A stretch of 64,000 bases of DNA from a bacterium (lineage in GTDB: Bacteria; SAR324; XYD2-FULL-50-16). Below, one piece after another: positions 6,862 to 56,869 of this stretch. The stretch is from assembly GCA_032250835.1 (NCBI GenBank), contig JAVVEA010000001.1, forward strand, positions 224,001 through 288,000, written 5' to 3'. Under the pieces are notes generated by a model. The model was given only the letters and a program-made list of their open reading frames with translations. It had not been told where the DNA came from and made no database searches. Position numbers and translations under genes: made by a program. Numbering within the stretch: the first letter of the stretch is position 1; each line of letters starts with the position of its first letter.

Positions 6862-6872
6862 GTTCTTAAGGG

Positions 6873-15375: not shown

Positions 15376-19893
<4,518 letters not shown>

Positions 19894-22368: not shown

Positions 22369-22392
22369 AAGAGCCCGGCAACGGGCTTTTTT
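22369..22392 (+). terminator. Intrinsic terminator after hemB
   Basis: AGCCCG-GCAA-CGGGCT followed by a T-run. Confidence 0.8.
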
Positions 22393-22420: not shown

Positions 22421-23827
22421 TCAATAAATCAGGATTTCTTCCAGTTGGATCTCCCCATTTCGAATCCCCCGCAACAACCTTTCCAAGTCTGCTTTATCTT
22501 CAGTGCGCACCGACTGAACCTGATAATCTTGCAGCAGTTGTTCTAATTGCCCCACAAAAGGCTTCAGTTGCGCCACCGCTTCGGCGATGCCTTTTTCATC
22601 TACAATCCGGTACACCGCCGCTTCTTGGGGAGTTAAGTTCTCAGCCAAGCCGCCGCCTGGAAGCAGCTGTACAGACCGGTCCCGATTCAATTTATAGACA
22701 AGACCATCGTCAAAATGCAATTCCGCCCAACCTTCTGTGGCCCGCAGGCGATCACCGGGCGACAGGGCGTCACCGACCTTAAGGCCAATCCAGGTACCTG
22801 GGGCAACCTGCTTCAATAGCTTTCCGTCCAAAGCGGTGACTTGACCGATCGGCGCTGAACCCGAGACGACCTCAAATTTTCGCTCGGCCTCACCGCGGCG
22901 CCCTTTAACCTTGAGCACATGAGAACCGGCCTTAAGGCCCAAGCGCAAGCTGCCTGGTCCGGGGCGGAAGGGTTCCCCGTCCAGCGAATGCTGTAAATCA
23001 GCCCCACGCGCAAACAGATAGACCGGTTTGTTTTCCTGCAACACCGCTGCTTCGGGAGGACTGACGATTTCGATGGGTCCCTTTGGGTCAGGTACCAAGA
23101 GCCCTACCTGTTCTGATTGAACCAAGTTTCCTTGTGCATCTAGCCCCATAGCACGAACCCGGTTGTAACCAACCGAAAAACGGTCCGTCTTTAAGGATTC
23201 ACCAAAGCCGATCAGCCGCTGAACCCCTTCGACCTCAGCGGTCCAAATCACCAGCGGGCGCTGGCCCATTCCGTCGGCCCCAGAGGCACGCAGGGTGATG
23301 GATTGTCCGGGTTTTAAGACCTGATCTCCTTTAGGCTCTAAGAGCTGCATCCCCGGTTCCCCAGCGGCAATCCAGCGGTAAGAACGGCTTATTTGCAAAG
23401 GCTCGGGGCGGTCTTTGTGGCGGATTGAAGCGGTGACCACCAGATCAAAGGGACCGGCGCTCGGAGGCTCGTAACGGAATCTTGGGCCCCTTTGGGGTTC
23501 ATTTCCCGCAACGCTCCACTGCCAATCCACTCCGGCTATCTCGGGCCCGATGATTTCGGCCCGGCTCTTTAAAACGCCACCAAAAGGCACCAGAAGGGGC
23601 GCTTGGCGGGGCGTCGCTAAGCCGGCTTCTAGCAGCTTCAATTCTTTACCACCTACTTCCGCTTGGGCCCAGAGGCGCAGCTCATAGGCAGCCGCATCGG
23701 GTGCCGCGGGTTTGGGGGAGGTGCTGTTCAGGCCGCAGCTTGCAAGGATACTCAATAAAGCCCAAGCTACCCATGCTTTGCTTTGCTTTTTTGGAAATCC
23801 TGTGAATACCATGTTTTTCCAATCCAT
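22421..23827 (-). CDS. Lipoprotein with ~3 Ig/PKD-like domains and a C-terminal FecR-like beta domain
   Basis: Lipobox LASC, WQWSVAG...FRYEPPSAG (PKD-like), LEPKGDQV and IVSPPEAAV Ig starts, GQVTALDG...LKVGDALSPGDRL...AELHFDDG FecR-like pattern. Confidence 0.65.
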   Translation of the reverse strand: MDWKNMVFTGFPKKQSKAWVAWALLSILASCGLNSTSPKPAAPDAAAYELRLWAQAEVGGKELKLLEAGLATPRQAPLLVPFGGVLKSRAEIIGPEIAGVDWQWSVAGNEPQRGPRFRYEPPSAGPFDLVVTASIRHKDRPEPLQISRSYRWIAAGEPGMQLLEPKGDQVLKPGQSITLRASGADGMGQRPLVIWTAEVEGVQRLIGFGESLKTDRFSVGYNRVRAMGLDAQGNLVQSEQVGLLVPDPKGPIEIVSPPEAAVLQENKPVYLFARGADLQHSLDGEPFRPGPGSLRLGLKAGSHVLKVKGRRGEAERKFEVVSGSAPIGQVTALDGKLLKQVAPGTWIGLKVGDALSPGDRLRATEGWAELHFDDGLVYKLNRDRSVQLLPGGGLAENLTPQEAAVYRIVDEKGIAEAVAQLKPFVGQLEQLLQDYQVQSVRTEDKADLERLLRGIRNGEIQLEEILIY

Positions 23828-23842
23828 TATCTAGGCTGTTTA

Positions 23843-24730
23843 ATGTGGTACAAACCGCTGCTACTTCTTTTGATCCTGCTCCCTTGCAACCTGCAAGCTC
23901 AAATATTAGGTAGCTTGCTGCAAACCCAAGGTAACCTTACCCTTAACGGACAGGGCACCGCTCCGGGCACCTTGCTGCAACCTCCCTGGACTTTGGATGC
24001 ACCGCAAGGAGCCGCCGCTGGCATTCTTTTGGCCCAAGGGGGGTTAATGGTATTCCAAGGGCCGGGAACACTGGTATCCGGTCCAGGGGGCTCCATCGGC
24101 CTACGCAGTGGCCAATTATGGGTCCAAAGCTCACAGGGGCTAATGGTTTCGCTCCCCTTTGCCCAACTCCCACCCGCCTCGGGAAGTTTTTTACTCTACC
24201 AAAACCCCAAAGAGCTTAAAATACAAGCCCTACAGGGCGCAAGGCCGCTAAGTTTCAAGGGGAAAGACTGGCGTCTCGAAGAGGGCAACCAACTAACCTT
24301 ACAAGAAGACACCCAACGCCTTGAGCTACAGATCACCCGTATTCCAGGCCAACTCAACCTTAAGTTGCCCCCGGGAGCCAGCCTTCTGCTCCCGGCTTCG
24401 GGAGCCCTGCCCCAAAACCTACAAGTCCATTTGACCGGACCGGGGCCCTACCCCAAGGGTGCTTTCTCGGGCTTCGCTTTAAGCGACTCCCCCAAATTAC
24501 TAGCGCCTTCTGGACCCTTATATTTCGACAACGGCCAAGGGGAATTTATGGTCCAACTAACCAGCCCTGGACGATCCCACCTGACCCTATTGTTTGCACC
24601 GCAAGATGATTTTCCAGGTGCCGTCGGAACCATCGAGCTAGAGGGATATTACCCCCCCGGTCAACGCCGCATCGAACTACGCACCAGTAGCGGAAGTAAC
24701 ATCGAGCTAGAATTGCGCAAAAAGCCCTAA
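23843..24730 (+). CDS. Exported protein with degenerate FecR-like N-terminal domain
   Basis: Signal peptide MWYKPLLLLLILLPCNLQA, LGSLLQTQGNLTLNG...LRSGQLWV...IQALQG...LEEGNQL. Track start is 23783. Confidence 0.6.
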   Translation: MWYKPLLLLLILLPCNLQAQILGSLLQTQGNLTLNGQGTAPGTLLQPPWTLDAPQGAAAGILLAQGGLMVFQGPGTLVSGPGGSIGLRSGQLWVQSSQGLMVSLPFAQLPPASGSFLLYQNPKELKIQALQGARPLSFKGKDWRLEEGNQLTLQEDTQRLELQITRIPGQLNLKLPPGASLLLPASGALPQNLQVHLTGPGPYPKGAFSGFALSDSPKLLAPSGPLYFDNGQGEFMVQLTSPGRSHLTLLFAPQDDFPGAVGTIELEGYYPPGQRRIELRTSSGSNIELELRKKP

Positions 24731-26337
24731 TCCAACGCCCCTGCGGCCAAAGCGGTCCAAGCCTCGGTCCGCTGAGGCGAGAGTGGATATTGCTGGATCA
24801 AACGCCGCAACAAGTCCTGCGCTCTCTCTTGCTCTCCTAACTCCCTTAGAACCTGAGCCGACCAGAGCAGCCAACGGGCCGCTAAGGGCTCGGGTATTTG
24901 GTGGCTATTTGATTCGATGGCTTTAACCCCCGGTTGCGCCAAGGTCCAGGCTTCTTTCCAATCCTGCCGTTTGATCAGAGCCCCTAAGGCTTGCTCTCGC
25001 TCTAACCAAGCGTCTTTTGCCTGCCCAGCCAAGGCCTTTAAATAGGTTCGGTCCCTTGAGTTTAAATCCAAGTCAAATTGCCAAACCCTACCGCCCGATT
25101 GCAAGGCCAAGGACCGGTCCGCTTGAACCAGTTCCCTATTGAGCGGAAATAGTAGGTAGTTGACTCCATCAGGCTGTACTTGCCCCAGGGCTTGACGCAC
25201 CAAAGGACGAACCCGACCAGGCGGCTGGGTAAAGGGGCCTAGGTCAACAAACACTAATTCTAGCTGCTCGGGACGGTAACGGTAGTTAGGCTCCTGGGGG
25301 CTCACCAACTCCGCATCTAGGTAAATTACCTGCCCAATGCGGCTAAAGACCAAACGTTCCTTACCGGGCTGGGCTCTGCCCTGGGCTTCTAGAGCAACGC
25401 TGGGCAACGTTTCAGCCGCAGCCACCGGGGGCGGCCGGTGGGCCACCTCTAAAGCCAGCCGCCGCCCCTCAAGACCCAATTGACGAGTCCAGAGCTCTAG
25501 GCTACTGCGCAGGGCCGGATCGGAGACTTTCCATTGCTGGGGCGCGTCGCTGCGGCCTGAAGCCATCCAATCTTGTTGGGGTAGTCGCTGAGAAGAAGCC
25601 GCCAGTTTACTGCGGAGGGGATGATCCGCCGGGAGTCTGGCGGCCAGCAACACCAAATCACCGGGGCTTTGGCCCAAGCCGCCCCGCAACTCGAAGGATT
25701 TGACCTCTGACCAATCATTGGCCGATTTAGGTTGGGCCAAGTGCATGGGAGGCAAAGAAACCCCCTCTCCGCTGGCCCAGGATCGACGCAAAGGCCTAAG
25801 CAGGTCTTCGGAGGCGCTTAAAAGAGGTTGTGGATTTCTAGGTGACCAAATTCCATCCAGACCGGGCCGCCCCAACAAACTGCGCCCAAGTCGCTTGAGC
25901 AGTTCGGGTAGGTCTTTGCGGTTTACTTCTATAGAGATCGCCCGCTCGCCCCGGAAGTCCTGTAGATGAGTCTGCCGTAAAGATAGCCAGTGGGCATCGC
26001 GAGCTAGGCCAGCAAGTAGGCCTTTAAGACCGCCTAATTTTTCTAAGTTGCGTCGCAGGGTCAAGCCCGGCCCCTGGGTCATAGCCAGACCGCGCAGTCC
26101 AGGGCGGAATTCTAGTTGCCACCAGTCTAAAGGCGCACCACCAACGCGCAAGTCTGCCAAATCGGTTGGGACTAATGCCAGCCCGTTGCCCCGCTCGTCT
26201 AGAGCCCTCAAAGGCAACGCCAGTAGGTTATCACCGACCAACCGAACCGGTTGGGATACCAGCAGGGGTTTTTCTGCGCCTTGCAGGCCCCACCCACCGC
26301 AGAGCAACAGCCCGATCAGGCAAGATAGGGCGCGCAT
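24727..26337 (-). CDS. Exported hypothetical protein with C-terminal TPR (CpoB/YbgF-like tail)
   Basis: Signal peptide and tail WSAQVLRELGEQERAQDLLRRLIQQYPLSP. Begins 5 bp downstream of the 26343 gene. Confidence 0.65.
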   Translation of the reverse strand: MRALSCLIGLLLCGGWGLQGAEKPLLVSQPVRLVGDNLLALPLRALDERGNGLALVPTDLADLRVGGAPLDWWQLEFRPGLRGLAMTQGPGLTLRRNLEKLGGLKGLLAGLARDAHWLSLRQTHLQDFRGERAISIEVNRKDLPELLKRLGRSLLGRPGLDGIWSPRNPQPLLSASEDLLRPLRRSWASGEGVSLPPMHLAQPKSANDWSEVKSFELRGGLGQSPGDLVLLAARLPADHPLRSKLAASSQRLPQQDWMASGRSDAPQQWKVSDPALRSSLELWTRQLGLEGRRLALEVAHRPPPVAAAETLPSVALEAQGRAQPGKERLVFSRIGQVIYLDAELVSPQEPNYRYRPEQLELVFVDLGPFTQPPGRVRPLVRQALGQVQPDGVNYLLFPLNRELVQADRSLALQSGGRVWQFDLDLNSRDRTYLKALAGQAKDAWLEREQALGALIKRQDWKEAWTLAQPGVKAIESNSHQIPEPLAARWLLWSAQVLRELGEQERAQDLLRRLIQQYPLSPQRTEAWTALAAGALD

Positions 26338-26342
26338 GGTTG

Positions 26343-27455
26343 TCAGTATAAATAGCGGAAGCTAATACCGGTCGCGCTCCCACTGAACTGGTTGACCCGC
26401 TGGGTACCGGTAGCATCGCTCAGGTAGCTGTCAACATCTGCCGACCCCAGGCTATAGATATCCAAACCAATACTTAAACCTTGGTTGATAAAAAATTCAG
26501 CCCCCAATTTGATACCCAATTGGCTGTTGCCCTCAACCATCGCCGGACCGAAACCTCCGTAGACGTACACCAACGGCTCGCCACCGATCAGGAAGGGGGC
26601 CCGATAGCGCACCAGCGGGGTGACCGCCACCACCGAAATATTCAAGGTTTCGGTGGCGCTGGTGGTGGTCGCCGAGAAGCTATCGAAGTCGATCCCCACG
26701 TCCATAGAATCCCAGAAAGTGGGGGTCAAGAGACGCAACGAAAGCCCAGAAAAGCTGGATACTTCTTCTTGTGAATGGGTTCCGTTGCTCTCGACCCAAC
26801 CGCTGTACTTAAACCCCAAAAAGGGCGAAAGGCCAAATCCAATATGGGATTCGCGGTCACTGGGCCGAGCCAAACCCTGATCCGAAGCCTCCGATTGGGC
26901 GACTAAACTAGCCGTTTTGACCACCGAGCCATCACCGGTCCGGACCAATTTTAAATTCAACGCCAACACACCGTTTTTTTCATCTAACTCTAAAAAGCCC
27001 TGCAAGGTCGAGTCTATGTTCAACTCCTTGCCCAGCGCTTTATATTGCTCGTTGGTCTCTACGGTACGGCTTAAGATCAGTGAGTCTTGCTCAACATAAA
27101 TCTTTAGGTTGGCACATTGGCGGCATTCAACCATTTCCAATCGACCATTAGCCACCAGGGCATGTAACAAGCGGTGGCGAAGGCGCAGCGGCCGAAGGTC
27201 GTAGTTAGGGTCGCCTTCAAGTTGCAACAGGGTTACCCGCTTGATGTTCTGGGGCAATTCTTTGAGTACCCCAGGAAGCTGGGTTAGGACTTGGTCAAAA
27301 AGCTTTTCAGTGTCCCACCGGCTGGCTGGGAGGCCAGCCCCTTCTTGCAACACCGGTAGTGCCAAGGCCTGTTCTTCGGCAGCTCTCAAAGAGCCGGGAA
27401 GCAACAAAAAGCTGGCCAACCACGCGGCACAACCTATTTGAAAAAAACGATTCAT
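26343..27455 (-). CDS. CsgG/TolB_N/LpoB-like alpha/beta domain fused to an outer-membrane beta-barrel
   Basis: Signal peptide, RVTLL...LVANGRLEMVE...LGKELNIDSTLQG...LNLKLVRTGDGSVV, then amphipathic strands ending GISFRYLY. Confidence 0.65.
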   Translation of the reverse strand: MNRFFQIGCAAWLASFLLLPGSLRAAEEQALALPVLQEGAGLPASRWDTEKLFDQVLTQLPGVLKELPQNIKRVTLLQLEGDPNYDLRPLRLRHRLLHALVANGRLEMVECRQCANLKIYVEQDSLILSRTVETNEQYKALGKELNIDSTLQGFLELDEKNGVLALNLKLVRTGDGSVVKTASLVAQSEASDQGLARPSDRESHIGFGLSPFLGFKYSGWVESNGTHSQEEVSSFSGLSLRLLTPTFWDSMDVGIDFDSFSATTTSATETLNISVVAVTPLVRYRAPFLIGGEPLVYVYGGFGPAMVEGNSQLGIKLGAEFFINQGLSIGLDIYSLGSADVDSYLSDATGTQRVNQFSGSATGISFRYLY

Positions 27456-27519
27456 CCTGTACCCATGAAAATATTTAAACCCACCGCACTAGGCTTAGGG
27501 TCCTAACTAACTAGCATTA

Positions 27520-30500
27520 TTAAGGGCGGTTCCTCAAGCGCAATCGCCTTGGCCCACTGGCCAATTCGGTGTGACTCAAGCCCTGGCCTTCGACCCGCCA
27601 ATAAAGAGGTCGGTTTCCGTTTTGCGACAAAGACCAGATCAGGTTCCACTGCAATGCCGAGGGCAACTGCTCGGACTGCTCGGTCCAATCAAGCCGCAAG
27701 ACCGTACCGCGCCCCTTAAAATCAGGGTCTGGCGAAAAAGCCAAACGGTATTTGCCCGATCCTACCGCGCTCCAACGGAACGACGGAGCCTGCCCGGGCA
27801 AAAACACCTGCATCTCGCTGGGGCTTTCGGCCCTTAAAGGGCGCACCGAAAGGTCTTCTTTACTGCGCGCCGCTAGTTGGTCCCCTTGGATCAGCAAACG
27901 GTAATTATCCTGGGCTAAGTCCTTAGGTAAGGACCAACGCCCTTCGATCAATTTAGCATCAGCACTCGGAGGCAGGGGAGCCAGCTTGAGTTCGCCTAAA
28001 CTATAGGTCTTAGCGCCCACCAACGAAAGTTTAAGTGACTGGGATTGGCTGGTGGAATAACCGCTGTTTTCTATGGCCAACTTCAAGCGTAGTTCGCCGC
28101 CAGGCAGTAAGTCTTGCCCCAAAAGGTCCACAAATTTCACCTGGAGTTTTGCGGGGCCGGACTTGAGCTGTTCGCTAGCCAGCCATTCCAAGCCATCGAC
28201 CTGCAACGCCACCCGGTAGCTACCTGCGGGGATGTCCGGGCAGGTCGCCTGTAGCGCATAGACCTGTTCACCTGATGGGCCCTTTTGGGCCTTGGGCAAA
28301 GCTAGGTTCCCCAGCAAAATTTTGCCCTGCGGCGACTGTAACCAAAGTTTCGCGGCACCTTTCGGTTCACCTTGCAACCGTAAAAGCAGGTTGAGCGGTT
28401 GCCCAGCAACCAAGCGGCGCTCGCGCAGTTCAACCCCCAAAAGCTGTAAATCTAAACCGGCACCACCGAGCGGATTCGCGCTAAAGGCTTGGTTATCGAG
28501 CGCCAAAAAACCTTCGGGTCCGTCGCTTTGGATTTGGGCTCGCAGCCTACCTGCCGGCAAGTCCTTTAGCTGCTCCCACCGGAAACTGCGCTGGATTTGG
28601 CGCTGGCCCACACTGGGCGCTAAATCGGGCAATTGGACGGTGGCCAACAAGAACTGCTCCCCGCCCTCGTTGGGATGATGCCAAAGCAACAATCGACTGT
28701 TAGATGAATCGCCACCGCCTAAGTTCTTCCATGCCAATTGGATTTCAATCTGAGCGCCTTTTCGGTGGTGGGCGAAGCCTTGAATCGCCAAATTGGCGGG
28801 GCCATGGAGCCACAGAGCCGGAGCCTGGGCCCGCGTCGTCCCAGCCAACCCTTCGCTCCAGGCCCGTAGGCGGAACACACCCGGCGGCAGGAAGTCTGGT
28901 AGCTTAACCTGCCGGTTGACCTGCTGGCGTCCTTTAGGCAGTCGGTTCACTCGAAGCGGCTGGTGTAGGTCTAAGACATAGCCCGACTGTTCCACCAGTT
29001 GGAAATGGACCTCAAGCGATTTTTCGATGGCCTGTTCTGAAGCCAAACTAAGATCAAAAGACAGGATCTGTCCTGGGGTTACCTTGGCTCGCTCCGCCAA
29101 GCCCCGAATGGCTATTTGTAGTTTATCGGTCTGGGGTAACGCAGGCTTAAGGGTTTTGAGGGCTTGCTGCGCCTCTTCGGGCTGTTTCTGGGTCGAAGCC
29201 CAGGCCTTCCAACCGGCGTTTAAGGAGCGCCAAGTAGCCGGCCTTGGGTCGGATTGGTGTAGCGGCGTCAAAGCCAACAACAACCCCTTGTCCGGCTGGA
29301 GCGCTAGGGCTTTTACTAAGGTCTGGCGCGCGGCGTTTGGTCGGCCTATTTTGACTTGCAACGCCGCCAGCTGGCTTGCGGTAGCCGGTTCTCCCGGCAC
29401 CAGCGCAAGCAACCGCTGTAGGAGGTCTAGGGCCGTTTGGCTTTCTCCGGTAGCCGCTAATTTGGCCGCCAAGTTACGGAAGTCTTCAAAAGCGAAGCGC
29501 GCATCACCCAAGACCCCTTTGGCCTGCTCTGGGGTTTTAAGCGAAGCGGCCAACCCCCGTTGAGCTTCCCAGGGGAGTTGATCGAAGTAAGCAGAGACAC
29601 CTAAGAGTAGCTGGACCCTCTGTTTCGCCTCGGCATTGAGGTGCGCCAAACCCAAAGACGCGCTCAGGTCGCTCGGCTGGGTTTGTAACCGCTGGGTCAA
29701 CTCCTGGCGTGCTTGGGCAAGGACCCCACGCCGGTAGAGCGGTAAAATATGCACGGGCTCTGGTGCCAGGAGCTGGTTGTTGGCGGACTGGCGGTCTTCG
29801 GCTAGAGCGGCACCTTCCAAACGCGCAACTAAACGGTAAGCTCCTTGGGGCAGGTCGGTGCCTGGGCGCAATTCACGGTCCCAGCTTTGAGGTCCCGCGG
29901 CGGGATCTAGCCCTTTAAAGGGGTCCAAGCCCTCTAAGGGATGCTCGACGCCTTGATCGTCAATCAATCGATAACCAACGGCAAAGTCCTGGCTGCGTTG
30001 GTTGCCTTGATTTACCAGCCCTAATTGGATTTTAAAAGGTTGTCCTGGTTTAACCCATACGTCTTTTGGGGGTTGTGTCCAAGCCAATCCTAGGTCGATG
30101 AAAGGCGCAGTGTAGCGATAGGTCACCAAGGATTGGGTCGGTTCGGAATCGGCTAAGGGCTTGCCCTGCGCATCTAAGAGCCGCGCGGCAAGGTGATAGC
30201 TACCTTCAACTAAGCGCTCTGGTAGCGTAACCGAAGGCTCCCAGCTTTGGCTGGCTTGCGGTTCGCCTAGCGGTTCGAATAGCGGGCTCGTGACTAAGTT
30301 AACCTCTTGACCCTTTTGGTGGCGTAAATACAGCTCAACCCGGTAGGCCTGACTGGCCAGGAAGCCTTGATTCTGGATTTGTAGTTTGACACCAAAAGCC
30401 GCGCCCCGCTGTAGGTCCTGTTTTTGCGGCTGGTCTGTCAAGGCCACCTTCAAGTCCGCCCGAGGTTCGACAATGCCCAGTGCATACCCCCCGTCGGCGC

Positions 30501-33036
30501 GGTTGTTAGCTAAATCAACCTCGCTACCTTCGCCGTCCAGTTCCAGGTGAACAACCAAGCGGTAATTACCCGGAGGCGCATTAACAGGGACTTCTAGGCG
30601 CTTATTCCAGCGCAAATCCTGGGACTCGGCTTTTAGGCCTTCAAAGCGATCACTGCCCTGTAAGTCAAAGGCCAACTTGGCTTCATGCTCCAACCGATAG
30701 TGAACACGAAAGGCACCACTAGACTTTTGCCCGAGATTCCCGGCCTTTAGATCGACATAAAAACCCTGTCCCGGTTGTAGACCCCCAACCGCCGCCTTCT
30801 CGTCCAGCCGTACCCAGAGATCAGGCAAGCCCGCTAAACGAGCGGCTTCCAACTCGTTGTAAAGATCATCCAGTTCTTCTAATTCGTCATCCAAATCAGC
30901 ATCCAGAGCGGCCTGTTTATTCTTCGCCAGAACCTCTCGGATGCCTTTGCGGGCCGTTTCGATGCTGTCTAAATCAGGCCGTTTTTGGATTACCGCAGAT
31001 AGTTGTTTGAGGTTCGAGATTAGCTGTTGCAACGCAACCTCTTGCTGGCCCTGCTCAATAAAAGCTTCCTTAGCTTGGTTGTATTGCGAGAGGCCGCGCC
31101 TTGCCAGACCCATCCGGTAATAGATCATCGGATAATCTTGGGCCAAGGAAAAAAGCGACTGGAAGGCCGAAAGGGATTCTTCGTAACGACCTTCATCTAA
31201 TAGTTTTTGCCCCAACTTGGCGAACTCTTCGATCAAGAAAGATTCGTCGCTTTGGCTGCTTAGGTTGCTCTTGCCTTCTTTCACCTGGGTTTTTAATTCC
31301 TGGTTCAAGGCGGCCCTAGCCGATAAAGAGATGCGGCTGAGCGAAGCGTTTAAGACATTCAAGGCGGTCTTTACGTCCCCTTGTTCGGCGTAGACTTTAC
31401 TTAAGGATAGCGAAAGATTTAGGTTGGCGGGCTCCTCGTCTAATTGGTCTTGCAGGGCGGCGGCGATGCGGTCGCCGCGGCCTTCGGCCAGATAGAGGGC
31501 GATCATTTCTTCTCGGGCCTTAAAGTCCAAAGCTTCCAACTGCTTGGCCCGCTGCAGGTCTAGTTTCTGGGCCTGTTCCTGGTCGGCTATCGGGTAGGAC
31601 AGTTCAGGCAGGCCTTTAAACAAGGTAAATTCCTCAACCCGCAGTCCGCTTAATTGTTCCTCAAGGCTGGGCTCCATCACCTGAGGCAGTTGGGGCACGG
31701 CTCTGAGCGTTTTGGAAGCGGGACCGGGACCGTCGGGGCCGATGGACCGTATACGATAATAGACCGCCTGATCGTTGGTCAGGTTTAGGTGCTCAAACTG
31801 GGGTACTTGCAGCTGTTTACTTTGAACTTTGTCTTGCGGCCACTGGGGATCAAAGCAATATTCTAACCGGTAACCTAGGGCCCCGGCCACTTCGGGCCAA
31901 CCCAACAAAACCCGCTGATCCCCCACCTGTGCCGCCAAGTTAGGGGCCGACAGCTGGACCGGAACCCTCAACTTGACTGGAGCCGAAGCGGCACTCTCTT
32001 GGGCGTCTGTAAAAGCCGCCACCCGGCAATATTTGGTGGTCCCCACCGCGAGACCGCTGATCCGGTGACCTGGGTCAACGGGTTCTCCGGTTCCGGGCAC
32101 AAATTCAAAATCTGCTTGGTCGCCGCAATACAACCGGTATCCGGTAACATCAGGTAGGGCTGGCCACGCCAAAACAAAGGCCCCCTCTTCTGCGGAAAGT
32201 TCGACTACCGGCGCACTTAGCCTGGACTCCTGAGACCAACCCGAAACTAGGTCGCCGGGCCGCTTAGCGGTGTTAGCCTGCCTGAACTGCGGCTCCGAGA
32301 CGGGGCCCCCTGCATACTGTAGGGTGATTTGCTCAAGCGTCAGATCGTCGGATTTTAAGGGGGGTTGGTTGAAGACATAGTCTTGTGGGTTCGCCATCTG
32401 CCCACCCCGACGGTCTTCTACCACCACTCCCCGGCCATTAGGCAATTGCCTAAAGCGGAGCGATTGGTAGGCCGAACTTTTGTCTAACAGGGTTCCGAAA
32501 GAAGCATCAAAAAGCTTCACCTCCAACCAGGCTTCAGATTCGCGCAGAATAAATCCCGCCCCTAACCATAACTGCACTCGGTTGCTGGTTTGGTATTGCG
32601 GTGCTGATAGGGTGACCCCGCGCCAACGGCGGCGTTCACCTTGACTAACCACCACCAAGGCCACCGGTTCAAAGGATTTTTCAGACTGCCCTGTGAGGGT
32701 AAAAGATAGCGCGAAAGCCCGCCGTTCGGGATCATAGATAAAATCGATAGGCGATATTGTGATGTCTTGCCCTTTCCGATAGATTGGGGCTAAAGGTTTG
32801 ATTTGGCGGTTCGGTTTGGGCGAGGAACTTTCGGTTGGCTCGGGAGGCTCGGCCAACGGAAGTGAGCTGGATTGCACCGGTAAAGGTTCTCGTTTCAGCG
32901 CACTAGGCTCAACAATTTGTTTTTTTACGGCGGGTTTTGGATCTTGGCAACTCGCTGCATATCCCAGACATAGCAACACCAGACCGCACTTGCGGCCATA
33001 GCTAACCCATTTTTTTATGCTGTTTAAAAACAACAA
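27520..33036 (-). CDS. Giant lipoprotein with FN3-like, TPR and multiple CARDB-like Ig domains
   Basis: Lipobox AASC, two LSAP...W...GYRL FN3 repeats, two TPR blocks, ~7 DL...G...N.G...S...G.YRL...(ANN) CARDB-like repeats, terminal FRW...Y...YWRVEG domain. TTG start is uncertain. Confidence 0.8.
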   Translation of the reverse strand: MLFLNSIKKWVSYGRKCGLVLLCLGYAASCQDPKPAVKKQIVEPSALKREPLPVQSSSLPLAEPPEPTESSSPKPNRQIKPLAPIYRKGQDITISPIDFIYDPERRAFALSFTLTGQSEKSFEPVALVVVSQGERRRWRGVTLSAPQYQTSNRVQLWLGAGFILRESEAWLEVKLFDASFGTLLDKSSAYQSLRFRQLPNGRGVVVEDRRGGQMANPQDYVFNQPPLKSDDLTLEQITLQYAGGPVSEPQFRQANTAKRPGDLVSGWSQESRLSAPVVELSAEEGAFVLAWPALPDVTGYRLYCGDQADFEFVPGTGEPVDPGHRISGLAVGTTKYCRVAAFTDAQESAASAPVKLRVPVQLSAPNLAAQVGDQRVLLGWPEVAGALGYRLEYCFDPQWPQDKVQSKQLQVPQFEHLNLTNDQAVYYRIRSIGPDGPGPASKTLRAVPQLPQVMEPSLEEQLSGLRVEEFTLFKGLPELSYPIADQEQAQKLDLQRAKQLEALDFKAREEMIALYLAEGRGDRIAAALQDQLDEEPANLNLSLSLSKVYAEQGDVKTALNVLNASLSRISLSARAALNQELKTQVKEGKSNLSSQSDESFLIEEFAKLGQKLLDEGRYEESLSAFQSLFSLAQDYPMIYYRMGLARRGLSQYNQAKEAFIEQGQQEVALQQLISNLKQLSAVIQKRPDLDSIETARKGIREVLAKNKQAALDADLDDELEELDDLYNELEAARLAGLPDLWVRLDEKAAVGGLQPGQGFYVDLKAGNLGQKSSGAFRVHYRLEHEAKLAFDLQGSDRFEGLKAESQDLRWNKRLEVPVNAPPGNYRLVVHLELDGEGSEVDLANNRADGGYALGIVEPRADLKVALTDQPQKQDLQRGAAFGVKLQIQNQGFLASQAYRVELYLRHQKGQEVNLVTSPLFEPLGEPQASQSWEPSVTLPERLVEGSYHLAARLLDAQGKPLADSEPTQSLVTYRYTAPFIDLGLAWTQPPKDVWVKPGQPFKIQLGLVNQGNQRSQDFAVGYRLIDDQGVEHPLEGLDPFKGLDPAAGPQSWDRELRPGTDLPQGAYRLVARLEGAALAEDRQSANNQLLAPEPVHILPLYRRGVLAQARQELTQRLQTQPSDLSASLGLAHLNAEAKQRVQLLLGVSAYFDQLPWEAQRGLAASLKTPEQAKGVLGDARFAFEDFRNLAAKLAATGESQTALDLLQRLLALVPGEPATASQLAALQVKIGRPNAARQTLVKALALQPDKGLLLALTPLHQSDPRPATWRSLNAGWKAWASTQKQPEEAQQALKTLKPALPQTDKLQIAIRGLAERAKVTPGQILSFDLSLASEQAIEKSLEVHFQLVEQSGYVLDLHQPLRVNRLPKGRQQVNRQVKLPDFLPPGVFRLRAWSEGLAGTTRAQAPALWLHGPANLAIQGFAHHRKGAQIEIQLAWKNLGGGDSSNSRLLLWHHPNEGGEQFLLATVQLPDLAPSVGQRQIQRSFRWEQLKDLPAGRLRAQIQSDGPEGFLALDNQAFSANPLGGAGLDLQLLGVELRERRLVAGQPLNLLLRLQGEPKGAAKLWLQSPQGKILLGNLALPKAQKGPSGEQVYALQATCPDIPAGSYRVALQVDGLEWLASEQLKSGPAKLQVKFVDLLGQDLLPGGELRLKLAIENSGYSTSQSQSLKLSLVGAKTYSLGELKLAPLPPSADAKLIEGRWSLPKDLAQDNYRLLIQGDQLAARSKEDLSVRPLRAESPSEMQVFLPGQAPSFRWSAVGSGKYRLAFSPDPDFKGRGTVLRLDWTEQSEQLPSALQWNLIWSLSQNGNRPLYWRVEGQGLSHTELASGPRRLRLRNRP

Positions 33037-36000
33037 AGATTCTATCCAGATAAAAGTGGTTGCCGCTGTGGCGGGGGTCCTTTTGTCTTTGAGCGTCGCT
33101 CAGAGCCCGTCCCAAGCAGCCCAGTTGAGCGATAAACGTATCCAAGAAATAGGCCAATCTATTGAAAAAGAGCCATCATTTGAACGGAAAACCAAACTAT
33201 TTCTATTATTGATCGAAGACCGTCAGTTAGCCAAGGATGCGTTGGGTGAAACGAAATGGCGCACCGCGTTAGAAGCCCAATTGGCGGCCCACCCAGAGGA
33301 ACAAAAAAAACTTCGTTGGGCGAATTTGCTTTCGCTCGCCGCTGCCGCCTGGCAAGCCGAGCAAGCGCCCCAAGCCAAAGAAGCGCTCAACAGACTGCTG
33401 ACGTTGCTGCCGCCCCAAGAAACTCAGGCCCGCTATTTAGCCCAGCAGCATTTGGCTAAAATCGCCGAAATTGAAGGGGACCTGAAGGCCCAGGAAAGCC
33501 ATCTTTCCAAATATGTGTTGTCTTATGCGCCGGGCGCAGAGTTTTACGCAAGTGCTGGCGGATTCCCTCGATTAGTGCAGTTGGCGGCCAAGACCCAAAG
33601 CGGCAAAGAACACTTGTACTACCGTACCTGGGCCCAGGTGGCCGCCGCACGGGGCAAAGCAGAAGACCGCAAGCAGGTCTTAACTGCTTGGGTCAACTTT
33701 GCCGCCTCAGGTGCCTCAAATTACCAGCCCGAACCCTTTGAGCAATTGGCTGAGGTCTACCGCAGCGAAGGAGACTTAGAACGCTTGCGGGAATTATTGG
33801 AGCTACAAGCCCAACAAGAACCGGACGATCAGCGCAGGATGTCGGTCTTTGAAGCCCAAATTGCTTTGGAACGCAGCGCGGGCCGTCCCCCGAGTCTTCC
33901 GGTGGTCACCCGGCTGTTGCAGTTACGCCGTGCCGCGGGCTTGGAAGTGCGTGACTTGCTTGAGGAGTTGGCCCAACGCAGCGACTATTCGGGCCGCGCC
34001 GAAGCCTTGCGTGAGTTGGCCAGTTTAACGCTCAAGGCCGAAGACTGGCTGCCGGCGCTCAAAACCCATCAAGACCTTTTAGCGCTCACGCCCAAGGCCT
34101 CGCAAGAAGCGCAATTACTGTTAAATAACTTAATCCAAATCAGCGATAAGTTGGGCAAAGTCGAGCTTTCCATTTTGTACCGACGCCAAAAGGTCTTAGG
34201 CGAAGCACCGGGAGACCCGCAGAACAAAGCCGCCGCCTTTGGCTGGTTGATGGACCGCCTGTGGGCAGCAGAAGACCACCAAGCCGCCGTCCAGTTATAC
34301 AAAGACACCACCAGCCGTACCTGGGCACAAGCCAGTTTTGAAGGCTCCGCTCAGTTGCATTATTTGGGCGCGCGGGCCTTTGAAGCCCAGGGCGACTTCG
34401 CCAAAGCCAACCTGCTTTATGGACAAGCCTTAGAACAAAACCAAGCCCAGGGACAAGCAGCCCAAGCAATCGCTTTAGCGCGAAAATTAGCGGCACTGGC
34501 TAAAGCCCACTTCCCTGGAGAGCCCGAGGCGCAGGCCCAAGAGCGGCTGCGGGATCTATATGCCGCCCAAGGAAATCCCTCTGGAGAAGCCAAAGCTACG
34601 CTATTATTAGCCCAAAAGCGCGAAAGCTTGGGCCAACAAAAGCTGGCCGTTTCCTTATACGAACGGGCCCTTAAGCTATACCGACAGGTCGGCGACCAGA
34701 ACCGGGTGGATGAACTATTGACCCTTTTAGCCAACGCCCGAGGTGGAGCGCCTGAGGAGCGCTTGGCTCGGCTGAAAGAACTGGAATCGACCCAAGGGGA
34801 AGACCCCAAGTCGCAGATCGTCACCCGCGTCGAGTTGGGCCATCTATACAGCCAGCTAAAAAAGACCGACTTGGCGCTGGCCGCTTACCAAGACGCCTTC
34901 GCCATGAATCAACAAGACCCGCAGCTTCGCCTTCAAGCCGCTGAACGGGCGGCTAACTTGCTGGTTCAGTTAGGGCAGGCTCAAGCAGCCGACCAACTCT
35001 TTAGCCAAGCCGAAGAGCTCTTAAAAGAACCGCCCCAGGACCCCAAAACCACGGATCTTTTGGTTGCCCTCTTGCGGGCCCACGCCAACCAGCTAAACCT
35101 TCAGGGCCAATCTGAACGAGCCTTACAGCGCCTAGATCTTTGGCTTAACCGGCTTAGCGGCGAAGCCAGACTGGACCTGATGCAAGCCAAGGGCGCGGTC
35201 CTTCTGCAAGCCCAACGCCCTCAAGAGGCGGCTCAGCTGCTAGAACAAGCCAGCCAAGGCTTGCCCTACGAGCAGGCGCTGCGCCTCCGAGGCCTCTTGG
35301 CAAAGGCCCAATTAGCTCAAGGTGATTACGCCCCGGCCTTAAAAACGATCGAGGCCCTGTTGGAACAACAAAAGACCCCCTTAAACGAGGCCCAGGTTGA
35401 GTTGACCAGCCTCAAAAGCTATGCCTTAAACCGCTTGGGCCGCCTCAACGAGGCCTTGGCTAACCAGCAGGCCTTGGTCCAAAGCCTCACCACCCAGGGG
35501 CCCGAGGGACCCCTTTCGTCTGCGGAGCTTCAACTAGCGGGTTATCAGTTAGAAGGCGGCCAACCGGGAAAGGCCCAAGAGGTTTTAGAGCGGATCAAGC
35601 TGCGTGAAGGGGTGGGTGCGGAATTACAGGCCAAGGCCTTATTATTAGAAGCTAAAATAGCCCAACAACGCAGCCAACCCGCCAAAGCGCACCAGGCCTT
35701 TGAAGCCCTTGAGCCCCTCCTTGCGGGCGGGCAGTTCCCGGAGCTAAGCGCCGAGGCTCACTACCAACGGGGCTTTTTGCAGTTAAAACAGCAGCAATTT
35801 GCCCAAGCGCTTGAGTCCTTTAGCCAAGCCGAAAAGGAATACTTCCGCCTGGGCCGACCCCAAGAACGCGACCAATGCCGTTTGGCCCAAGCCAACTTAC
35901 AAGCCCAAAGGGGTCAGTACAAACCCGCCAGGGAAGCGATTGACAAGGTCCTGAGCGAAGCCCCACAGGCCAGCCCATTGCGCGGCGACGCCTTAAACCT

Positions 36001-38518
36001 ACGCGGCTTTTTACAGTCCGAGCAGGGGCAATATTCCGAGGCTCTAGAAACCAGCCAAGCAGCCGAGGATTTTTATCAAGCCCAAGGCCAAGAAGCCCAA
36101 CTGCCGGAGGTACTTAACTCCCGAGGTCTGATCTACCTAAAGATGCGCGATCTACAGCAGGCCGAGATCACCCTGAATGCCGCCTGGGAGGCGGCCCAAA
36201 AGTCGGGTAACCGGGTCTTGATGGCTGAAGTGGCCAATAACCTGGGCGGGTTGTACCGAGGCTTAGGGCAGCTAGAAAAGGCCCAAAAAAGCCTGCTCAA
36301 GGCCTCGGAACTACAACGCGAATTGGGCTTGGATAGTCAGTTGGCCTTAACCTACAACAACCTAGGGGCCCTTTACTTGGAACAGGAAGACTACCCCCAA
36401 GCCCTAGACTTCCTCCAACGCGCCCAACAGCAAGCCCGAAGCTTTGACCTCAAGAAAGAAGAAGCCCTAGCTTGGAACAACCTGGGGATTTTACACTTCC
36501 GCCAAGACCAACGCCCAGCAGCTCAAAAGGCCTTTGAAGAAGCCATCAAAGGACAAAAAGTCCTAGGTCTAGACCTCGAGCAGGCCCGCTCGCTCAACAA
36601 CTTGGCCTTTTTAGCCCAGGCCAGCGGCAACTTGGAGTTAGCCTTAGAGCGGGTCCAAGAAGCGGTGGCGCTGTTGTCCTTTAAGCCCTTAGATAAAAAA
36701 ACTCGATTCCCTACGCCTGAAGCGGCTTCGGTTTTAGCACCGGATCTAATGACCGGCTTTTTGCTGAACCGGGGAAGTTTTTTGAAACAACTGGCCGATT
36801 CCAAAAAAGGCAAAGAACAACGTCAGTTGCAGGTTTCCGGCTATGAAAGCTTCGCGCTGGCCATTGAGCTATTAGAAACCCAGCGCAGCAGCATCAAAGG
36901 CGAAGAGTCCCAGCAAATGCTGATGCAGAGCAATATCGACCTCTACCAACAGTTGATCGCTCTGCTTTTTGACCTAGGAAAAAATGACCCCGGCGGTCCG
37001 TACCACCAAAAGGCCTTTTACTACGCCGAAGCCTCGCGGGCCCGTAGCTTTTTAGACCGCCTCCAAGAACAAGCCGCCAAAGCGAGCCTAACGCTCCCAG
37101 CGGATTTACGACAAAAGGAAGAGGGCCTGAGGCTGCGCCAAGAGGAACTGAACCTAGCGATCTTCGCCGAGTTAAGCAAAGAACCGGCGCTCAGGGACCG
37201 CAAAAAAATAGAACAGTGGCAGCTAGAAAAGGTTGAGGTGCAATTAGCCTTCACCAAGCTGGCAACGGCCATCGAAAAGCAGTTTCCGGCCTTTGCTAGC
37301 CTCAAATACCCAAAGATTATGGACGTAGAAGGGGTCCGCAAAAATCTATTAGATGCAGACAGCCGATTACTCAGCTATTTTCTTGGGGACGACCGCAGCT
37401 TTGGTTGGAGTATTGGCAAAGGGGGCTTTGAGATGCTGCAACTGCCCCCGGCCGGGGACATTGACGCTCTGGTTCGCTCTTACCGGGATACGTTGGTCAA
37501 CCCTTTGGTGGACGAAAACGACGACTCCAATGAGCTGATTCAGGACATGACCCAAATCCACCTAGCCACCGGGCTTAAGCTCTACCGGCAGTTGATCGCC
37601 CCGCTGATTGAGAAGAGTGAAGACCACAAAAAGTTGCTGATCATCCCCGATGGGGTGTTATATTATTTACCCTTCGAGACGACGCTGGTCAAAATCCACG
37701 CCCCCTCGGATACCCGTTATCCTAAAGGACGCGAATATTTGCTCTTTGAGCATGCGGTGCGATACGCCCCTTCGGCTAGCGTCTTGGCGACCATTGAAGA
37801 CCAGTTAGCGCGCCGTGACCCCGCCAAAACTAAGGCCCGTAAGGACTTTATCGGCTTTGGTGACCCAGAATATGGCCCCGAAAAAGCCGACGAAGCCAAC
37901 TTTAAATTCAACCCAGCCTTAAAGGCCCAAGGCTTTTACGACCTAGCCCGTCTTTTTGGAACCCGCAGCGAATTGAACAACATCTCGGAAATCTTCGCTG
38001 ATTCTAACCAGGTGTATCTACGCGAAGAGGCCCAGGAAAGCCGCGTCAAAAGCAGCCTACAGGGCTATAAATACGTCCACTTCGCCACCCACGGCATCTT
38101 GGACGAAAAAAACCCCGAGTTCAGCGGCGTGGTGTTGAACTTAGTTCAGCCAGATGGGGTAGAAGACGGCTTCTTGCAAACTTCCGAAGTGTTCGACCTT
38201 AAGGTAGATGCGGACTTGGTGGTTCTTTCGGCCTGCGAAACCGGCTTAGGTAAAGTAATCAAAGGGGAGGGCATGGTTGGCTTGACCCGCAGCTTTCTCT
38301 TTGCCGGCTCACCTTCGATTGTCGTATCCCTCTGGAGCGTCGCCGACGACAGCACCGCTCAGTTGATGATCCATTTTTACAAAAACCTAAACCAAGGGAT
38401 GGGTAAGACCGAGGCGCTTCGACAAGCGAAGATCACCTTGCTCCGCCAACAAGACGGTGACTACCTCCCCTACGCGGACCCTTTCTTTTGGGGTCCCTTC
38501 ATCCTCAACGGTGGTTAG
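33017..38518 (+). CDS. TPR-CHAT domain protein (caspase-clan cysteine peptidase) with predicted signal peptide
   Basis: Long TPR solenoid with NNLG repeats. CHAT motifs IIPDGVLYYLPFE, YAPSAS, HFATHG, LSACETG, SLWSVAD, ALRQAK, PFFWGPF. Confidence 0.92.
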   Translation: MLFKNNKDSIQIKVVAAVAGVLLSLSVAQSPSQAAQLSDKRIQEIGQSIEKEPSFERKTKLFLLLIEDRQLAKDALGETKWRTALEAQLAAHPEEQKKLRWANLLSLAAAAWQAEQAPQAKEALNRLLTLLPPQETQARYLAQQHLAKIAEIEGDLKAQESHLSKYVLSYAPGAEFYASAGGFPRLVQLAAKTQSGKEHLYYRTWAQVAAARGKAEDRKQVLTAWVNFAASGASNYQPEPFEQLAEVYRSEGDLERLRELLELQAQQEPDDQRRMSVFEAQIALERSAGRPPSLPVVTRLLQLRRAAGLEVRDLLEELAQRSDYSGRAEALRELASLTLKAEDWLPALKTHQDLLALTPKASQEAQLLLNNLIQISDKLGKVELSILYRRQKVLGEAPGDPQNKAAAFGWLMDRLWAAEDHQAAVQLYKDTTSRTWAQASFEGSAQLHYLGARAFEAQGDFAKANLLYGQALEQNQAQGQAAQAIALARKLAALAKAHFPGEPEAQAQERLRDLYAAQGNPSGEAKATLLLAQKRESLGQQKLAVSLYERALKLYRQVGDQNRVDELLTLLANARGGAPEERLARLKELESTQGEDPKSQIVTRVELGHLYSQLKKTDLALAAYQDAFAMNQQDPQLRLQAAERAANLLVQLGQAQAADQLFSQAEELLKEPPQDPKTTDLLVALLRAHANQLNLQGQSERALQRLDLWLNRLSGEARLDLMQAKGAVLLQAQRPQEAAQLLEQASQGLPYEQALRLRGLLAKAQLAQGDYAPALKTIEALLEQQKTPLNEAQVELTSLKSYALNRLGRLNEALANQQALVQSLTTQGPEGPLSSAELQLAGYQLEGGQPGKAQEVLERIKLREGVGAELQAKALLLEAKIAQQRSQPAKAHQAFEALEPLLAGGQFPELSAEAHYQRGFLQLKQQQFAQALESFSQAEKEYFRLGRPQERDQCRLAQANLQAQRGQYKPAREAIDKVLSEAPQASPLRGDALNLRGFLQSEQGQYSEALETSQAAEDFYQAQGQEAQLPEVLNSRGLIYLKMRDLQQAEITLNAAWEAAQKSGNRVLMAEVANNLGGLYRGLGQLEKAQKSLLKASELQRELGLDSQLALTYNNLGALYLEQEDYPQALDFLQRAQQQARSFDLKKEEALAWNNLGILHFRQDQRPAAQKAFEEAIKGQKVLGLDLEQARSLNNLAFLAQASGNLELALERVQEAVALLSFKPLDKKTRFPTPEAASVLAPDLMTGFLLNRGSFLKQLADSKKGKEQRQLQVSGYESFALAIELLETQRSSIKGEESQQMLMQSNIDLYQQLIALLFDLGKNDPGGPYHQKAFYYAEASRARSFLDRLQEQAAKASLTLPADLRQKEEGLRLRQEELNLAIFAELSKEPALRDRKKIEQWQLEKVEVQLAFTKLATAIEKQFPAFASLKYPKIMDVEGVRKNLLDADSRLLSYFLGDDRSFGWSIGKGGFEMLQLPPAGDIDALVRSYRDTLVNPLVDENDDSNELIQDMTQIHLATGLKLYRQLIAPLIEKSEDHKKLLIIPDGVLYYLPFETTLVKIHAPSDTRYPKGREYLLFEHAVRYAPSASVLATIEDQLARRDPAKTKARKDFIGFGDPEYGPEKADEANFKFNPALKAQGFYDLARLFGTRSELNNISEIFADSNQVYLREEAQESRVKSSLQGYKYVHFATHGILDEKNPEFSGVVLNLVQPDGVEDGFLQTSEVFDLKVDADLVVLSACETGLGKVIKGEGMVGLTRSFLFAGSPSIVVSLWSVADDSTAQLMIHFYKNLNQGMGKTEALRQAKITLLRQQDGDYLPYADPFFWGPFILNGG

Positions 38519-39025
38519 CGCGGGCCCGCCTAAGCGGGCCTAAGACGCACCCCTTCGGATTCTTTAAGAAACCGCCGCGTTGCCTTAAAACTTAGGCCCC
38601 TTAACATTCTGGGTAACTTAAGTGAATCCAGCCCATGCATTCATCAAAAAACCTCCCGGTAGGGCTCGGATTATAGGCTTTTTAACTTAGCCCGCTAAGG
38701 GTCGTCCCGAGGGGCTAAGGTTCAAGATAGAAGCCGCCGATTCAGTGGAGTCAAGCTAGGTAAATTCCGGCAGAAGCTTTCTTCTGGTTACCTTTTCGGT
38801 TAGCTACCCCGACCAGGGAAAGGCGCTTTGGTTGGTCTTTGCGTAGGGACCTTTTCTCTTGCTGCTTTCTTGCTTTTTCCTCATCGATCGTACATCGTCT
38901 AGCTTGGCCTGATCGCCCCATTGGGCAGGGATTATCGACCGCCAAAGAATTTTAAGCCGCCCTTGGATTCTCGAACCTATTCGAAACTTGGAAGGGGCAC
39001 CACCGCTGCCAACTTTAAGGGCCTC

Positions 39026-39997: not shown

Positions 39998-40726
39998 CTA
40001 AAGCGTTTCGCCTAGGCTGATCCGCAGGATATTGGGGCGTTCGGGTAGGTCGCGGGTACCGGCCCCGTAGCCGATCTTTTCGACCTTCATGAGCGGCAAG
40101 CCGGGCTCAAAAGCATGGGCCAAGGTTTTCGCGATCGCCGCGCCGGTCGGCGTGGTCAATTCAAAGGGGAGATGGCCGGAGTGGACCGGTAGGCCCTTGA
40201 GGATTTCTAAGGTAGCCAGGGCGGGGACCGGGTAGACCCCGTGACGACATTTAACCTCTCCGTAGCCTAAAGCCAGGGGCGAAAAGACGATGCGCTCCGG
40301 TTGCAACTGCTCGACCGCCAAAGCGACGCCGATCACGTCCACAATCGAGTCTATGGCCGCCACTTCGTGGAAGTGGACTGCTTCAATGGGCAACCCGTGG
40401 ATCGCCCCTTCAGCGACGGCGATGGCTTCAAAGATCGCCAAGGCCCGCTGCCGGGCTCCGTCCTTTAAACCCGCTCGTTCGATCAACCCGACCACTTCGC
40501 GGTAGTGGTGGTGGTGAAACTGCGGGAACGGCTCGGCCAGCTCCATTTTCAACGCCGAAACCCCACATTTATCGACCCGCTTGAACTCCAACCGGATCGG
40601 CAAATCCGGGCTGAGTGAACCTAAGTCGGCCTCCAATTGTCGGGGGTCCACTCCTAAGTCCACCAATGCGGCCAAGGTCATGTCCCCGGCAATGCCAGCG
40701 GGGCAATCAAAGTAGAGTATTTTCAT
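39998..40726 (-). CDS. larC: Nickel-pincer cofactor protein LarC, N-terminal domain only
   Basis: MKILYFDCPAGIAGDM, AEGAIHG...VHFHEV, DSIVD, HGVYPVPALAT, ELTTPTGAA, IGYGAG...PNILR. 242 aa. Confidence 0.88.
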   Translation of the reverse strand: MKILYFDCPAGIAGDMTLAALVDLGVDPRQLEADLGSLSPDLPIRLEFKRVDKCGVSALKMELAEPFPQFHHHHYREVVGLIERAGLKDGARQRALAIFEAIAVAEGAIHGLPIEAVHFHEVAAIDSIVDVIGVALAVEQLQPERIVFSPLALGYGEVKCRHGVYPVPALATLEILKGLPVHSGHLPFELTTPTGAAIAKTLAHAFEPGLPLMKVEKIGYGAGTRDLPERPNILRISLGETL

Positions 40727-40737
40727 AAAGAGGTAGG

Positions 40738-54758: not shown

Positions 54759-54835
54759 TGTACGCCTCGAATTTGGAGTTGTAGCCCCTTACGGGGGGTG
54801 TTTAGGCCCAAGGCCCGAGTCTAAATCTGAATCTG

Positions 54836-55069: not shown

Positions 55070-55070
55070 A

Positions 55071-55084
55071 CGCCCTCCATGGCG
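55071..55084 (-). promoter_or_regulatory. CsrA-binding-type hairpin overlapping the csrA SD
   Basis: mRNA CGCC-AUGGAG-GGCG directly before the AUG matches CANGGANG. Confidence 0.55.
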
Positions 55085-56859: not shown

Positions 56860-56869
56860 TTTGCCTGCC

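Follow-up and report, generated by a model that had tools for sequence, protein, structure and literature searches.

TPR-CHAT proteases have been described in chromosome segregation (separase) and in CRISPR immunity (Csx29), where they are cytoplasmic or nuclear and are subject to activation by RNA-bound Cas7-11 or to control by securin. TPR-CHAT proteins that carry export signals are also numerous in the databases, and we know of no substrate for any of them. According to the available part of PMC11506125, the DdvA protein of M. xanthus is a transmembrane anti-sigma factor with a periplasmic TPR-CHAT region of ~900 residues that carries the canonical His/Cys dyad and has been visualized by cryogenic electron microscopy. 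Self-cleavage of DdvA on receipt of a signal was proposed there and not demonstrated, the CHAT domain having been seen in its resting state; its authors regard DdvA as the sole characterized anti-sigma factor with such a domain, and Table S7 of the same source lists DdvA-like proteins, which may have a bearing on how widely they are distributed. Here, a block of six genes, termed g1 to g6, was analyzed in a 64 000-nucleotide stretch of contig JAVVEA010000001.1 (assembly GCA_032250835.1) from a bacterium of the SAR324 lineage, and this whole stretch is referred to below as the window. The last gene of the block encodes a large TPR-CHAT protein, and the interpretation that is tentatively preferred, with somewhat less than an even chance of being correct, is that this protein is a periplasmic protease that processes co-encoded envelope proteins, the whole forming a conserved module.

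The g6 gene (33017-38518, plus strand) encodes a predicted Sec-exported cysteine protease of 1833 amino acids, with a predicted signal peptide at about residues 1-34 and a region of ~1200 amino acids with many Pfam TPR matches that lies N-terminal of the CHAT domain (PF12770). The CHAT match (E = 1.5e-69) spans residues 1518-1832, takes in positions 3-288 of the 289-position profile and scores 235.1 bits, where the cut-off is 24, and by this sequence measure g6 is a member of the CHAT family of clan CD cysteine peptidases; a weak Pfam match to Peptidase_C50 (E = 0.02) was also present. A protein search with g6 returned 635 matches out of 7996 scored candidates. The orthologues comprise 18 full-length clusters, with 34-51% identity and coverage of 96% or more, plus a single partial cluster, and those that carry names are labeled Proteobacteria, Deltaproteobacteria or SAR324 metagenome-assembled genomes (MAGs). 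Residues H1692 and C1740, which we take, from their motifs rather than from mapping on a structure, to be the catalytic dyad, were invariant together with their flanking motifs in all 20 of the aligned orthologues. Such invariance at 34-51% overall identity argues for selection on catalysis, and the intact dyad described in the initial annotation was borne out. Sequence searches of the Protein Data Bank (PDB) with g6 and with a profile of its orthologues returned TPR proteins only, with no solved CHAT chain matched, and the CHAT domain of g6 alone returned nothing meaningful.

The conservation of the block was addressed by scanning species-representative genomes with an alignment of g5 as the seed, which gave six loci from 310 pattern matches. 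One of these (L001), from the MAG of Candidatus Lambdaproteobacteria bacterium RIFOXYD2_FULL_56_26, has the complete set of six genes, arranged and oriented relative to one another as in the window, with identities of 35% for g1 (over 466 amino acids), 32% for g2, 32% for g3, 59% for g4, 38% for g5 and 51% for g6. The tight packing is also kept, with head-to-head g5/g6 starts, overlapping g2/g3 stops and close g1/g2 starts (junctions in L001 at ~8020-8060, 16537-16547 and 17478-17488). The g2/g3 stop overlap is 4 nt in the window and 11 nt in L001, and the g1/g2 start distance is 9-15 nt. None of the five window flank genes tested had a match in L001, where the flank genes encode MFS, FabMG and pentapeptide proteins, and the recurrence of the block with unrelated flanks supports a functional module, the genes of which probably act together. 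The g4 and g6 families are both rare and similarly broad, and the SAR324 MAG series COB67 is represented in each. On the preferred interpretation, the block would be a lineage-restricted conserved envelope module of SAR324/Lambdaproteobacteria-type bacteria. In three further loci of the scan (L004-L006), the FN3 stretch of g5 was the only common part.

The six contiguous open reading frames (ORFs) described initially are present in the window, with their coordinates exact. Their strand order is -,+,-,-,-,+, which rules out a single operon, and the block must therefore be transcribed as three or four units at least. The g5 (27520-33036), g4 (26343-27455) and g3 (24727-26337) genes follow one another closely on the minus strand, separated by 64 and 5 nt. 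The g5 and g6 genes are divergent and overlap by 20 nt at their 5′ ends (33017-33036), the g1 (22421-23827, minus strand) and g2 (ORF 23783-24730, plus strand) starts are divergent and 15 nt apart (23827-23843), and g2 and g3 are convergent with a 4-nt overlap of their stops (24727-24730). Since the head-to-head starts overlap or are separated by only 9-20 nt, the promoters must sit within neighboring coding sequence. A scan for promoters and terminators gave counts close to chance (6 against 7.0 expected; 36 against 31.8). Note also that a g5-g4-g3 transcript could read antisense through g2 into g1.

Export signals were called with a crude rule, under which an uncharged hydrophobic 10-mer scoring at least 2.2 starts by residue 30 and has a basic residue before it. 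Five of the six block genes were called in this way, while g4 was narrowly missed (2.17 against 2.2) and has an N terminus that was judged by eye to be a normal signal peptide. The L001 orthologues of g1, g2, g3, g5 and g6 also have signal-like N termini, and the assignment in the initial annotation of export signals to all six products, with lipoboxes on two, was thereby upheld. Among 34 other ORFs of the window the rule called six, of which five are plausibly exported (FlgI, FlgH, FlgA, an M30 lipoprotein and a 178-amino acid protein) and one, a mis-started ORF, is false. Signal-like N termini were found on 13 of the first 20 g6 proteins listed (the window's own included), most of the misses resembling start-codon errors, and by the crude rule on 86 of the nearest 120 TPR-CHAT matches listed. 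Judged on their N-terminal sequences, signal-peptide-like TPR-CHAT proteins are common. This result, together with the periplasmic TPR-CHAT region reported for DdvA in the available part of PMC11506125, overturns the initial premise that the characterized CHAT proteins are all cytoplasmic.

The g5 gene encodes a predicted lipoprotein of 1838 amino acids, in which a Pro/Ser-rich linker is followed by an N-domain, two FN3-like domains (~280-450), a TPR block (~490-660), three CARDB-like repeats (740-1073), a second TPR block (~1104-1256) and four more CARDB-like repeats (1306-1717). The seven CARDB-like units were counted with a profile grown from one of them. Pfam TPR_19 and CARDB matches were above their cut-offs and fn3 was weak, and the lipobox is kept in the L001 copy (L-V-S-C), all of which agrees with the FN3/TPR/CARDB lipoprotein first proposed. 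The database gene model of g5 (P0006, 1714 amino acids) begins 124 codons downstream, which affects window positions 32665-33036, and the model of a g5 relative (P0007) begins inside the lipobox; both models miss the conserved lipoprotein signal. A protein search with g5 gave two true relatives among nine matches. In the genome scan, two other MAG loci (L002 and L003) contain only a shorter g5 relative of 1298 amino acids with three CARDB-like units and a signal peptide that has no lipobox. In both loci the gene order is the same, a CHASE2-adenylate/guanylate cyclase gene coming before the g5-like gene and genes for several large Big_2 proteins and then Sua5 coming after it (L002, 7662-23018; L003, 6409-22966). 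An MtxA-like gene, encoding a magnetotaxis protein domain, is found just upstream in L003 (6409-7368).

The 370-amino acid g4 product is a predicted outer-membrane protein. Its Pfam matches were sub-threshold (FlgO at 18.8 bits against a cut-off of 22.6, and a weak OMP_b-brl match). The AlphaFold2 model, built from a 23-row alignment, has a predicted local distance difference test score (pLDDT) of 86 and consists of a periplasmic LpoB/TolB-N/FlgO-like domain (~45-187) and a small beta-barrel (~204-369). In Foldseek comparisons of the model, the N-domain was similar to the C-domain of LpoB (TMt 0.67-0.68) and to TolB, and the barrel to OmpA, OmpW, Ail and OmpX. When 25 relatives of g4 were scanned, four passed the FlgO cut-off and two that of LpoB. 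The modeling supports a CsgG/LpoB/FlgO/TolB-N-like fold for the N-domain, and not membership in any one of these families, and in this form it agrees with the initial description of a CsgG/TolB_N-like domain joined to a beta-barrel, which the model shows to be small and OmpA/OmpW-like. A curli-type CsgG secretion channel was rejected for g4, which has its own small barrel and CsgG matches below the cut-off. At E ≤ 1e-30, 10 representatives of the g4 family were found among 1.84 billion, and a PDB sequence search with the g4 profile gave nothing meaningful. Most of the g4 relatives (P0005, P0136-P0142) are longer, at 530-770 amino acids, and have two or three tandem LpoB/FlgO-like domains before the barrel. 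A CxxC motif in the periplasmic N-domain of g4, at residues 111-114 (window ~27114-27125), is invariant in five of five aligned family members and could be a disulfide or metal site. Prediction of a complex between g4 (26-370) and g2 (20-295) returned a score of 0.00 against a mark of 0.32, which bears neither way, and tblastn searches of plasmids with g4 and g2 gave zero matches. The g3 product is an exported orphan of 536 amino acids, and the C-terminal TPR (~474-531; TPR_14, 23.6 bits against a cut-off of 23.5) was its sole detected domain, in keeping with the TPR-tailed orphan of the initial annotation. Only TPR look-alikes were found for g3 in the ESM Atlas, where its model is poor (pLDDT 0.44).

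Both g1 and g2 had been described as FecR-like. The FecR fold is a periplasmic domain in a class of anti-sigma regulators. With the E-value limit relaxed to 10, the corresponding Pfam family (PF04773) still matched neither g1 and g2 nor the orthologue of either in L001. The g2 product, an exported protein of ~295 amino acids when read from the likely start ATG at 23843, had no Pfam or NCBIfam match of any kind. The ESM Atlas model of the identical sequence, however, resembled FecR clusters (best template modeling score 0.66; cluster 94% FecR), and a FecR-type fold for g2 can be retained from this model as a lead only. For g1, a predicted lipoprotein of 468 amino acids that is beta-rich with C-terminal helices and has a lipobox (L-A-S-C, or L-F-G-C in the L001 orthologue), the FecR label was not supported. 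The AlphaFold2 model, from a 2-row alignment, is unusable (pLDDT 47), and an hhalign comparison of g1 with g2 detected no relation (probability 0.4%). A PDB sequence search with g1 gave nothing meaningful. The Ig domain also ascribed to g1 corresponds to weak Ig-type matches, to PKD in g1 (E = 0.018) and to BiPBP_C in the L001 orthologue (E = 1.7e-4).

The setting of CHAT genes elsewhere was explored with the g6 CHAT domain in a tblastn search of plasmids, which gave 202 records, and 12 neighborhoods, hand-picked for taxonomic spread and therefore non-random, were inspected. A ShlB/POTRA transporter with a giant exoprotein was present in three (Caballeronia, Burkholderia YI23 and Sphingobium), CHASE2 in two (a CHASE2-cyclase in Sphingobium, L012; in Calothrix together with DUF928 and TIR), and a sigma-70-family factor or zf-HC2 gene was nearby in three (two Chondrinema plasmids and Granulicella). 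These neighborhoods make a CHAT gene beside envelope partners a recurring pattern. The CHASE2-cyclase, found with CHAT in Sphingobium and with g5-like genes in L002 and L003, provides links to both. These links of the g5 family to CHASE2-cyclases and of plasmid CHAT genes to CHASE2 may also offer a way towards the ligands of CHASE2 sensors. In Burkholderia, FecR-domain proteins adjoin CHASE2 kinases, according to the available part of PMC5192318. In the Caballeronia (L007, 6621-16839) and Burkholderia YI23 (L015, 4813-12939) plasmids, the TPR-CHAT, ShlB and giant filamentous hemagglutinin (FHA)-type genes lie inside a type VI secretion cluster.

Taken together, the data can be accommodated in the following scheme. 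The g6 protein would be exported through Sec to the periplasm as a large soluble TPR-CHAT cysteine protease, while the operon g5-g4-g3, head-to-head with g6, would supply a giant outer-membrane lipoprotein, a barrel protein and a TPR-tailed periplasmic protein; g2 may contribute a periplasmic protein of FecR-type fold and g1 a beta-rich lipoprotein. The TPR solenoid of g6 would dock one or more of the co-encoded envelope proteins, holding the CHAT site gated, and on cue the CHAT domain would cut a partner. The first candidate substrate is g5, given that its gene and g6 lie head-to-head in the window and in L001 alike, and the cut could mature g5, release it or switch its state. The gene content, the dyad, the export-type N termini, the g4 fold and the conservation of the block are what the data show. 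Localization, protein contacts, cleavage and substrate are inferred here, and the cleavage of a partner, the sensing and the anchoring put forward in the initial annotation are likewise pure inference. Since the block is compact, conserved and made up entirely of envelope genes, it offers a short list of candidate substrates and partners, and what exported CHAT proteases cut becomes testable.

Several observations weigh against this scheme. Co-occurrence across genomes, proposed as a check in the initial annotation, was seen as a full block, diverged and with other flanks, in just one independent extra lineage. The proteins found in ENA (58-59% identity for g4, 38% for g5 and 51% for g6) look like close kin of L001, and the relationship between L001 and the window organism may be near enough to explain the synteny by inheritance. 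Both strands are used by the block. Neither L002 nor L003 has a CHAT gene or a relative of g1-g4 within 10 kb of the g5-like gene, which weakens the initial case. Finally, the two g5 relatives set against 18 g6 orthologues suggest that many g6 orthologues may lack a g5 partner, a comparison made uncertain by the word pre-filter and the 8000 candidates scored, and five of the 12 plasmid CHAT neighborhoods inspected have no envelope partner or any of the other genes listed above. Of the initial interpretation as a whole, the gene content, the export signals and the conserved block have stood, and the cytoplasmic-only premise has not; nor is the block a single operon.

The main rival, which is rather unlikely, is that separate protease and lipoprotein units have been kept together by shared descent. 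It would divide the block into a stand-alone exported TPR-CHAT protein with its partners elsewhere, a surface-lipoprotein or adhesin operon (g5-g4-g3, perhaps with g1) and an independent g2, all syntenic through common ancestry. The strand changes that split the block, the occurrence of the g5 family with CHASE2-cyclase and Big_2 genes and without CHAT, the unequal numbers of g5 and g6 relatives and the plasmid CHAT genes without an envelope partner would all be expected of such units. Harder to reconcile with them is that L001, with wholly different flanks, preserves the full set of genes at 32-59% identity together with the orientations and overlaps seen in the window, and that the head-to-head start region of g5 and g6 is common to both genomes.

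A bolder version of the preferred processing scheme, and a distinctly improbable one, treats the block as a free-standing periplasmic caspase-like switch. The TPR-CHAT protein, resting on a scaffold of barrel, FecR-fold and TPR proteins, would cut the giant lipoprotein on a cue and so remodel or shed the surface, and the same lipoprotein family would plug into CHASE2-cyclase sensors elsewhere. If true, a single envelope signaling logic, so far undescribed, would be read out both through exported CHAT proteases and through CHASE2 receptors.

It could also be, with a still lower probability, that g6 is a sensor of the DdvA kind, the TPR-CHAT protein detecting a periplasmic protein that is foreign (a phage component, for instance) or related to stress and responding by proteolysis, with the FecR-fold and outer-membrane proteins relaying the event inwards. 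The precedent of DdvA itself (available part of PMC11506125) invites this explanation, as do the sigma-70-family or zf-HC2 genes that adjoin CHAT in three of the 12 plasmid loci and the association of CHASE2-cyclase with CHAT (L012) and with g5-like genes (L002 and L003). The FecR fold is moreover known from anti-sigma regulators. Against it, genes for sigma or anti-sigma factors, CHASE2 proteins, kinases and cyclases are absent from the block and from its immediate neighborhood, g6 has a predicted cleavable signal peptide and not an anti-sigma domain with a transmembrane helix, and neither g1 nor g2 has a transmembrane or cytoplasmic part. No defense genes were found among the window annotations, with the PADLOC library not run. 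The least probable explanation makes the block a purely structural complex, for the envelope or for adhesion, whose CHAT domain has no activity or serves only as a scaffold and whose TPR arrays do the work. The ~1200 amino acids of TPR in g6, the TPRs of g3 and g5, and the DdvA CHAT domain seen at rest with no proteolysis demonstrated (available part of PMC11506125) might suggest it. Against it stands the dyad, since the His and Cys residues and the motifs around them do not vary among the 20 aligned orthologues, whose overall identity is 34-51%.

The boundaries of the block were also examined. A terminator-like hairpin (22369-22390, plus strand) is situated between hemB and the 3′ end of g1 and forms the left boundary, as the initial annotation had it, while the downstream gap measures 402 bp (38518 to 38921) and not the ~500 bp first given. 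This gap contains no Rfam family and no ORF longer than 87 amino acids, and an Rfam search of the whole window gave zero matches. The flanks are housekeeping in nature, with gltB, gltD and hemB on the left and a TerB-like ORF, a larC-like ORF and gcvT/gcvP on the right. The larC-like ORF (39998-40840) spans only positions 1-234 of 375 of the profile of its nickel-insertion family and, with no ORF for the rest of the profile seen downstream, may be a split or truncated gene. Further to the left, positions 6325-8561 encode the predicted peptidase family M30 lipoprotein (562 amino acids) and then the 178-amino acid exported protein, which has no family. A flagellar run on the minus strand (54261-63958) comprises fliW, a flagellin-family/flgL-like gene, flgK, flgN, flgI, flgH, flgA and flgG, and the organism is therefore a flagellated diderm.

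The block was finally compared with known systems. In the adhesin-release system LapA/LapG/LapD, a periplasmic cysteine protease cuts a giant surface protein that is held at the outer membrane. The likeness to the block is one of idea only, as LapG belongs to a different protease family from g6. The Lap system was rejected as an assignment, the retention_LapA model of NCBIfam matching g1 only and at noise level (17.4 bits against a cut-off of 50), and no LapG-type family match, LapD or LapE was found in the block. Two-partner secretion, as seen on the Burkholderiaceae and Sphingobium plasmids, shares by annotation the placing of a TPR-CHAT gene beside genes for an outer-membrane barrel and a giant exported protein, and we know of no experiments on such pairs of CHAT and two-partner-secretion genes. 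The components differ, since g4 combines an LpoB-like domain with a small barrel of the OmpA/OmpW kind and is not a 16-strand Omp85/POTRA transporter, and g5 is a predicted lipoprotein with CARDB-like domains and not an FHA-type beta-helix. A TpsB/ShlB assignment was discounted accordingly, with no ShlB, POTRA or Omp85 match in g4 and a small barrel in its model.

With Csx29 of the type III-E Craspase and with separase, g6 shares the TPR-gated clan CD architecture, reflected in its Pfam CHAT match and its weak Peptidase_C50 match. A Craspase was rejected, no Cas family being present among the annotated ORFs of the window, where arrays were not separately searched. As the initial annotation had supposed, no named system of this composition is described in the literature that was found, in which no paper combined the CHAT domain with FecR or CHASE2; none is described in the available parts of PMC10907252, PMC6722718, PMC11854122 and PMC8055020.

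The comparison with DdvA is the most instructive in its differences. Where DdvA has a zinc anti-sigma domain and a single transmembrane helix, g6 has a predicted signal peptide, and it has no zf-HC2 or anti-sigma match in Pfam. Among the block genes and their neighbors there is no sigma-70-family match, and thus no adjacent extracytoplasmic function sigma gene of the DdvA type. The g6 protein is also about twice as long, and its would-be partners are encoded by outer-membrane and lipoprotein genes, not by defense genes. Like DdvA, however, g6 carries its CHAT domain, His/Cys dyad included, behind a TPR solenoid and is predicted to be extracytoplasmic, and for both a signal-gated protease acting on an envelope-side target is proposed only. 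The block is a member of no named system and is a variation on the recently recognized periplasmic TPR-CHAT theme.

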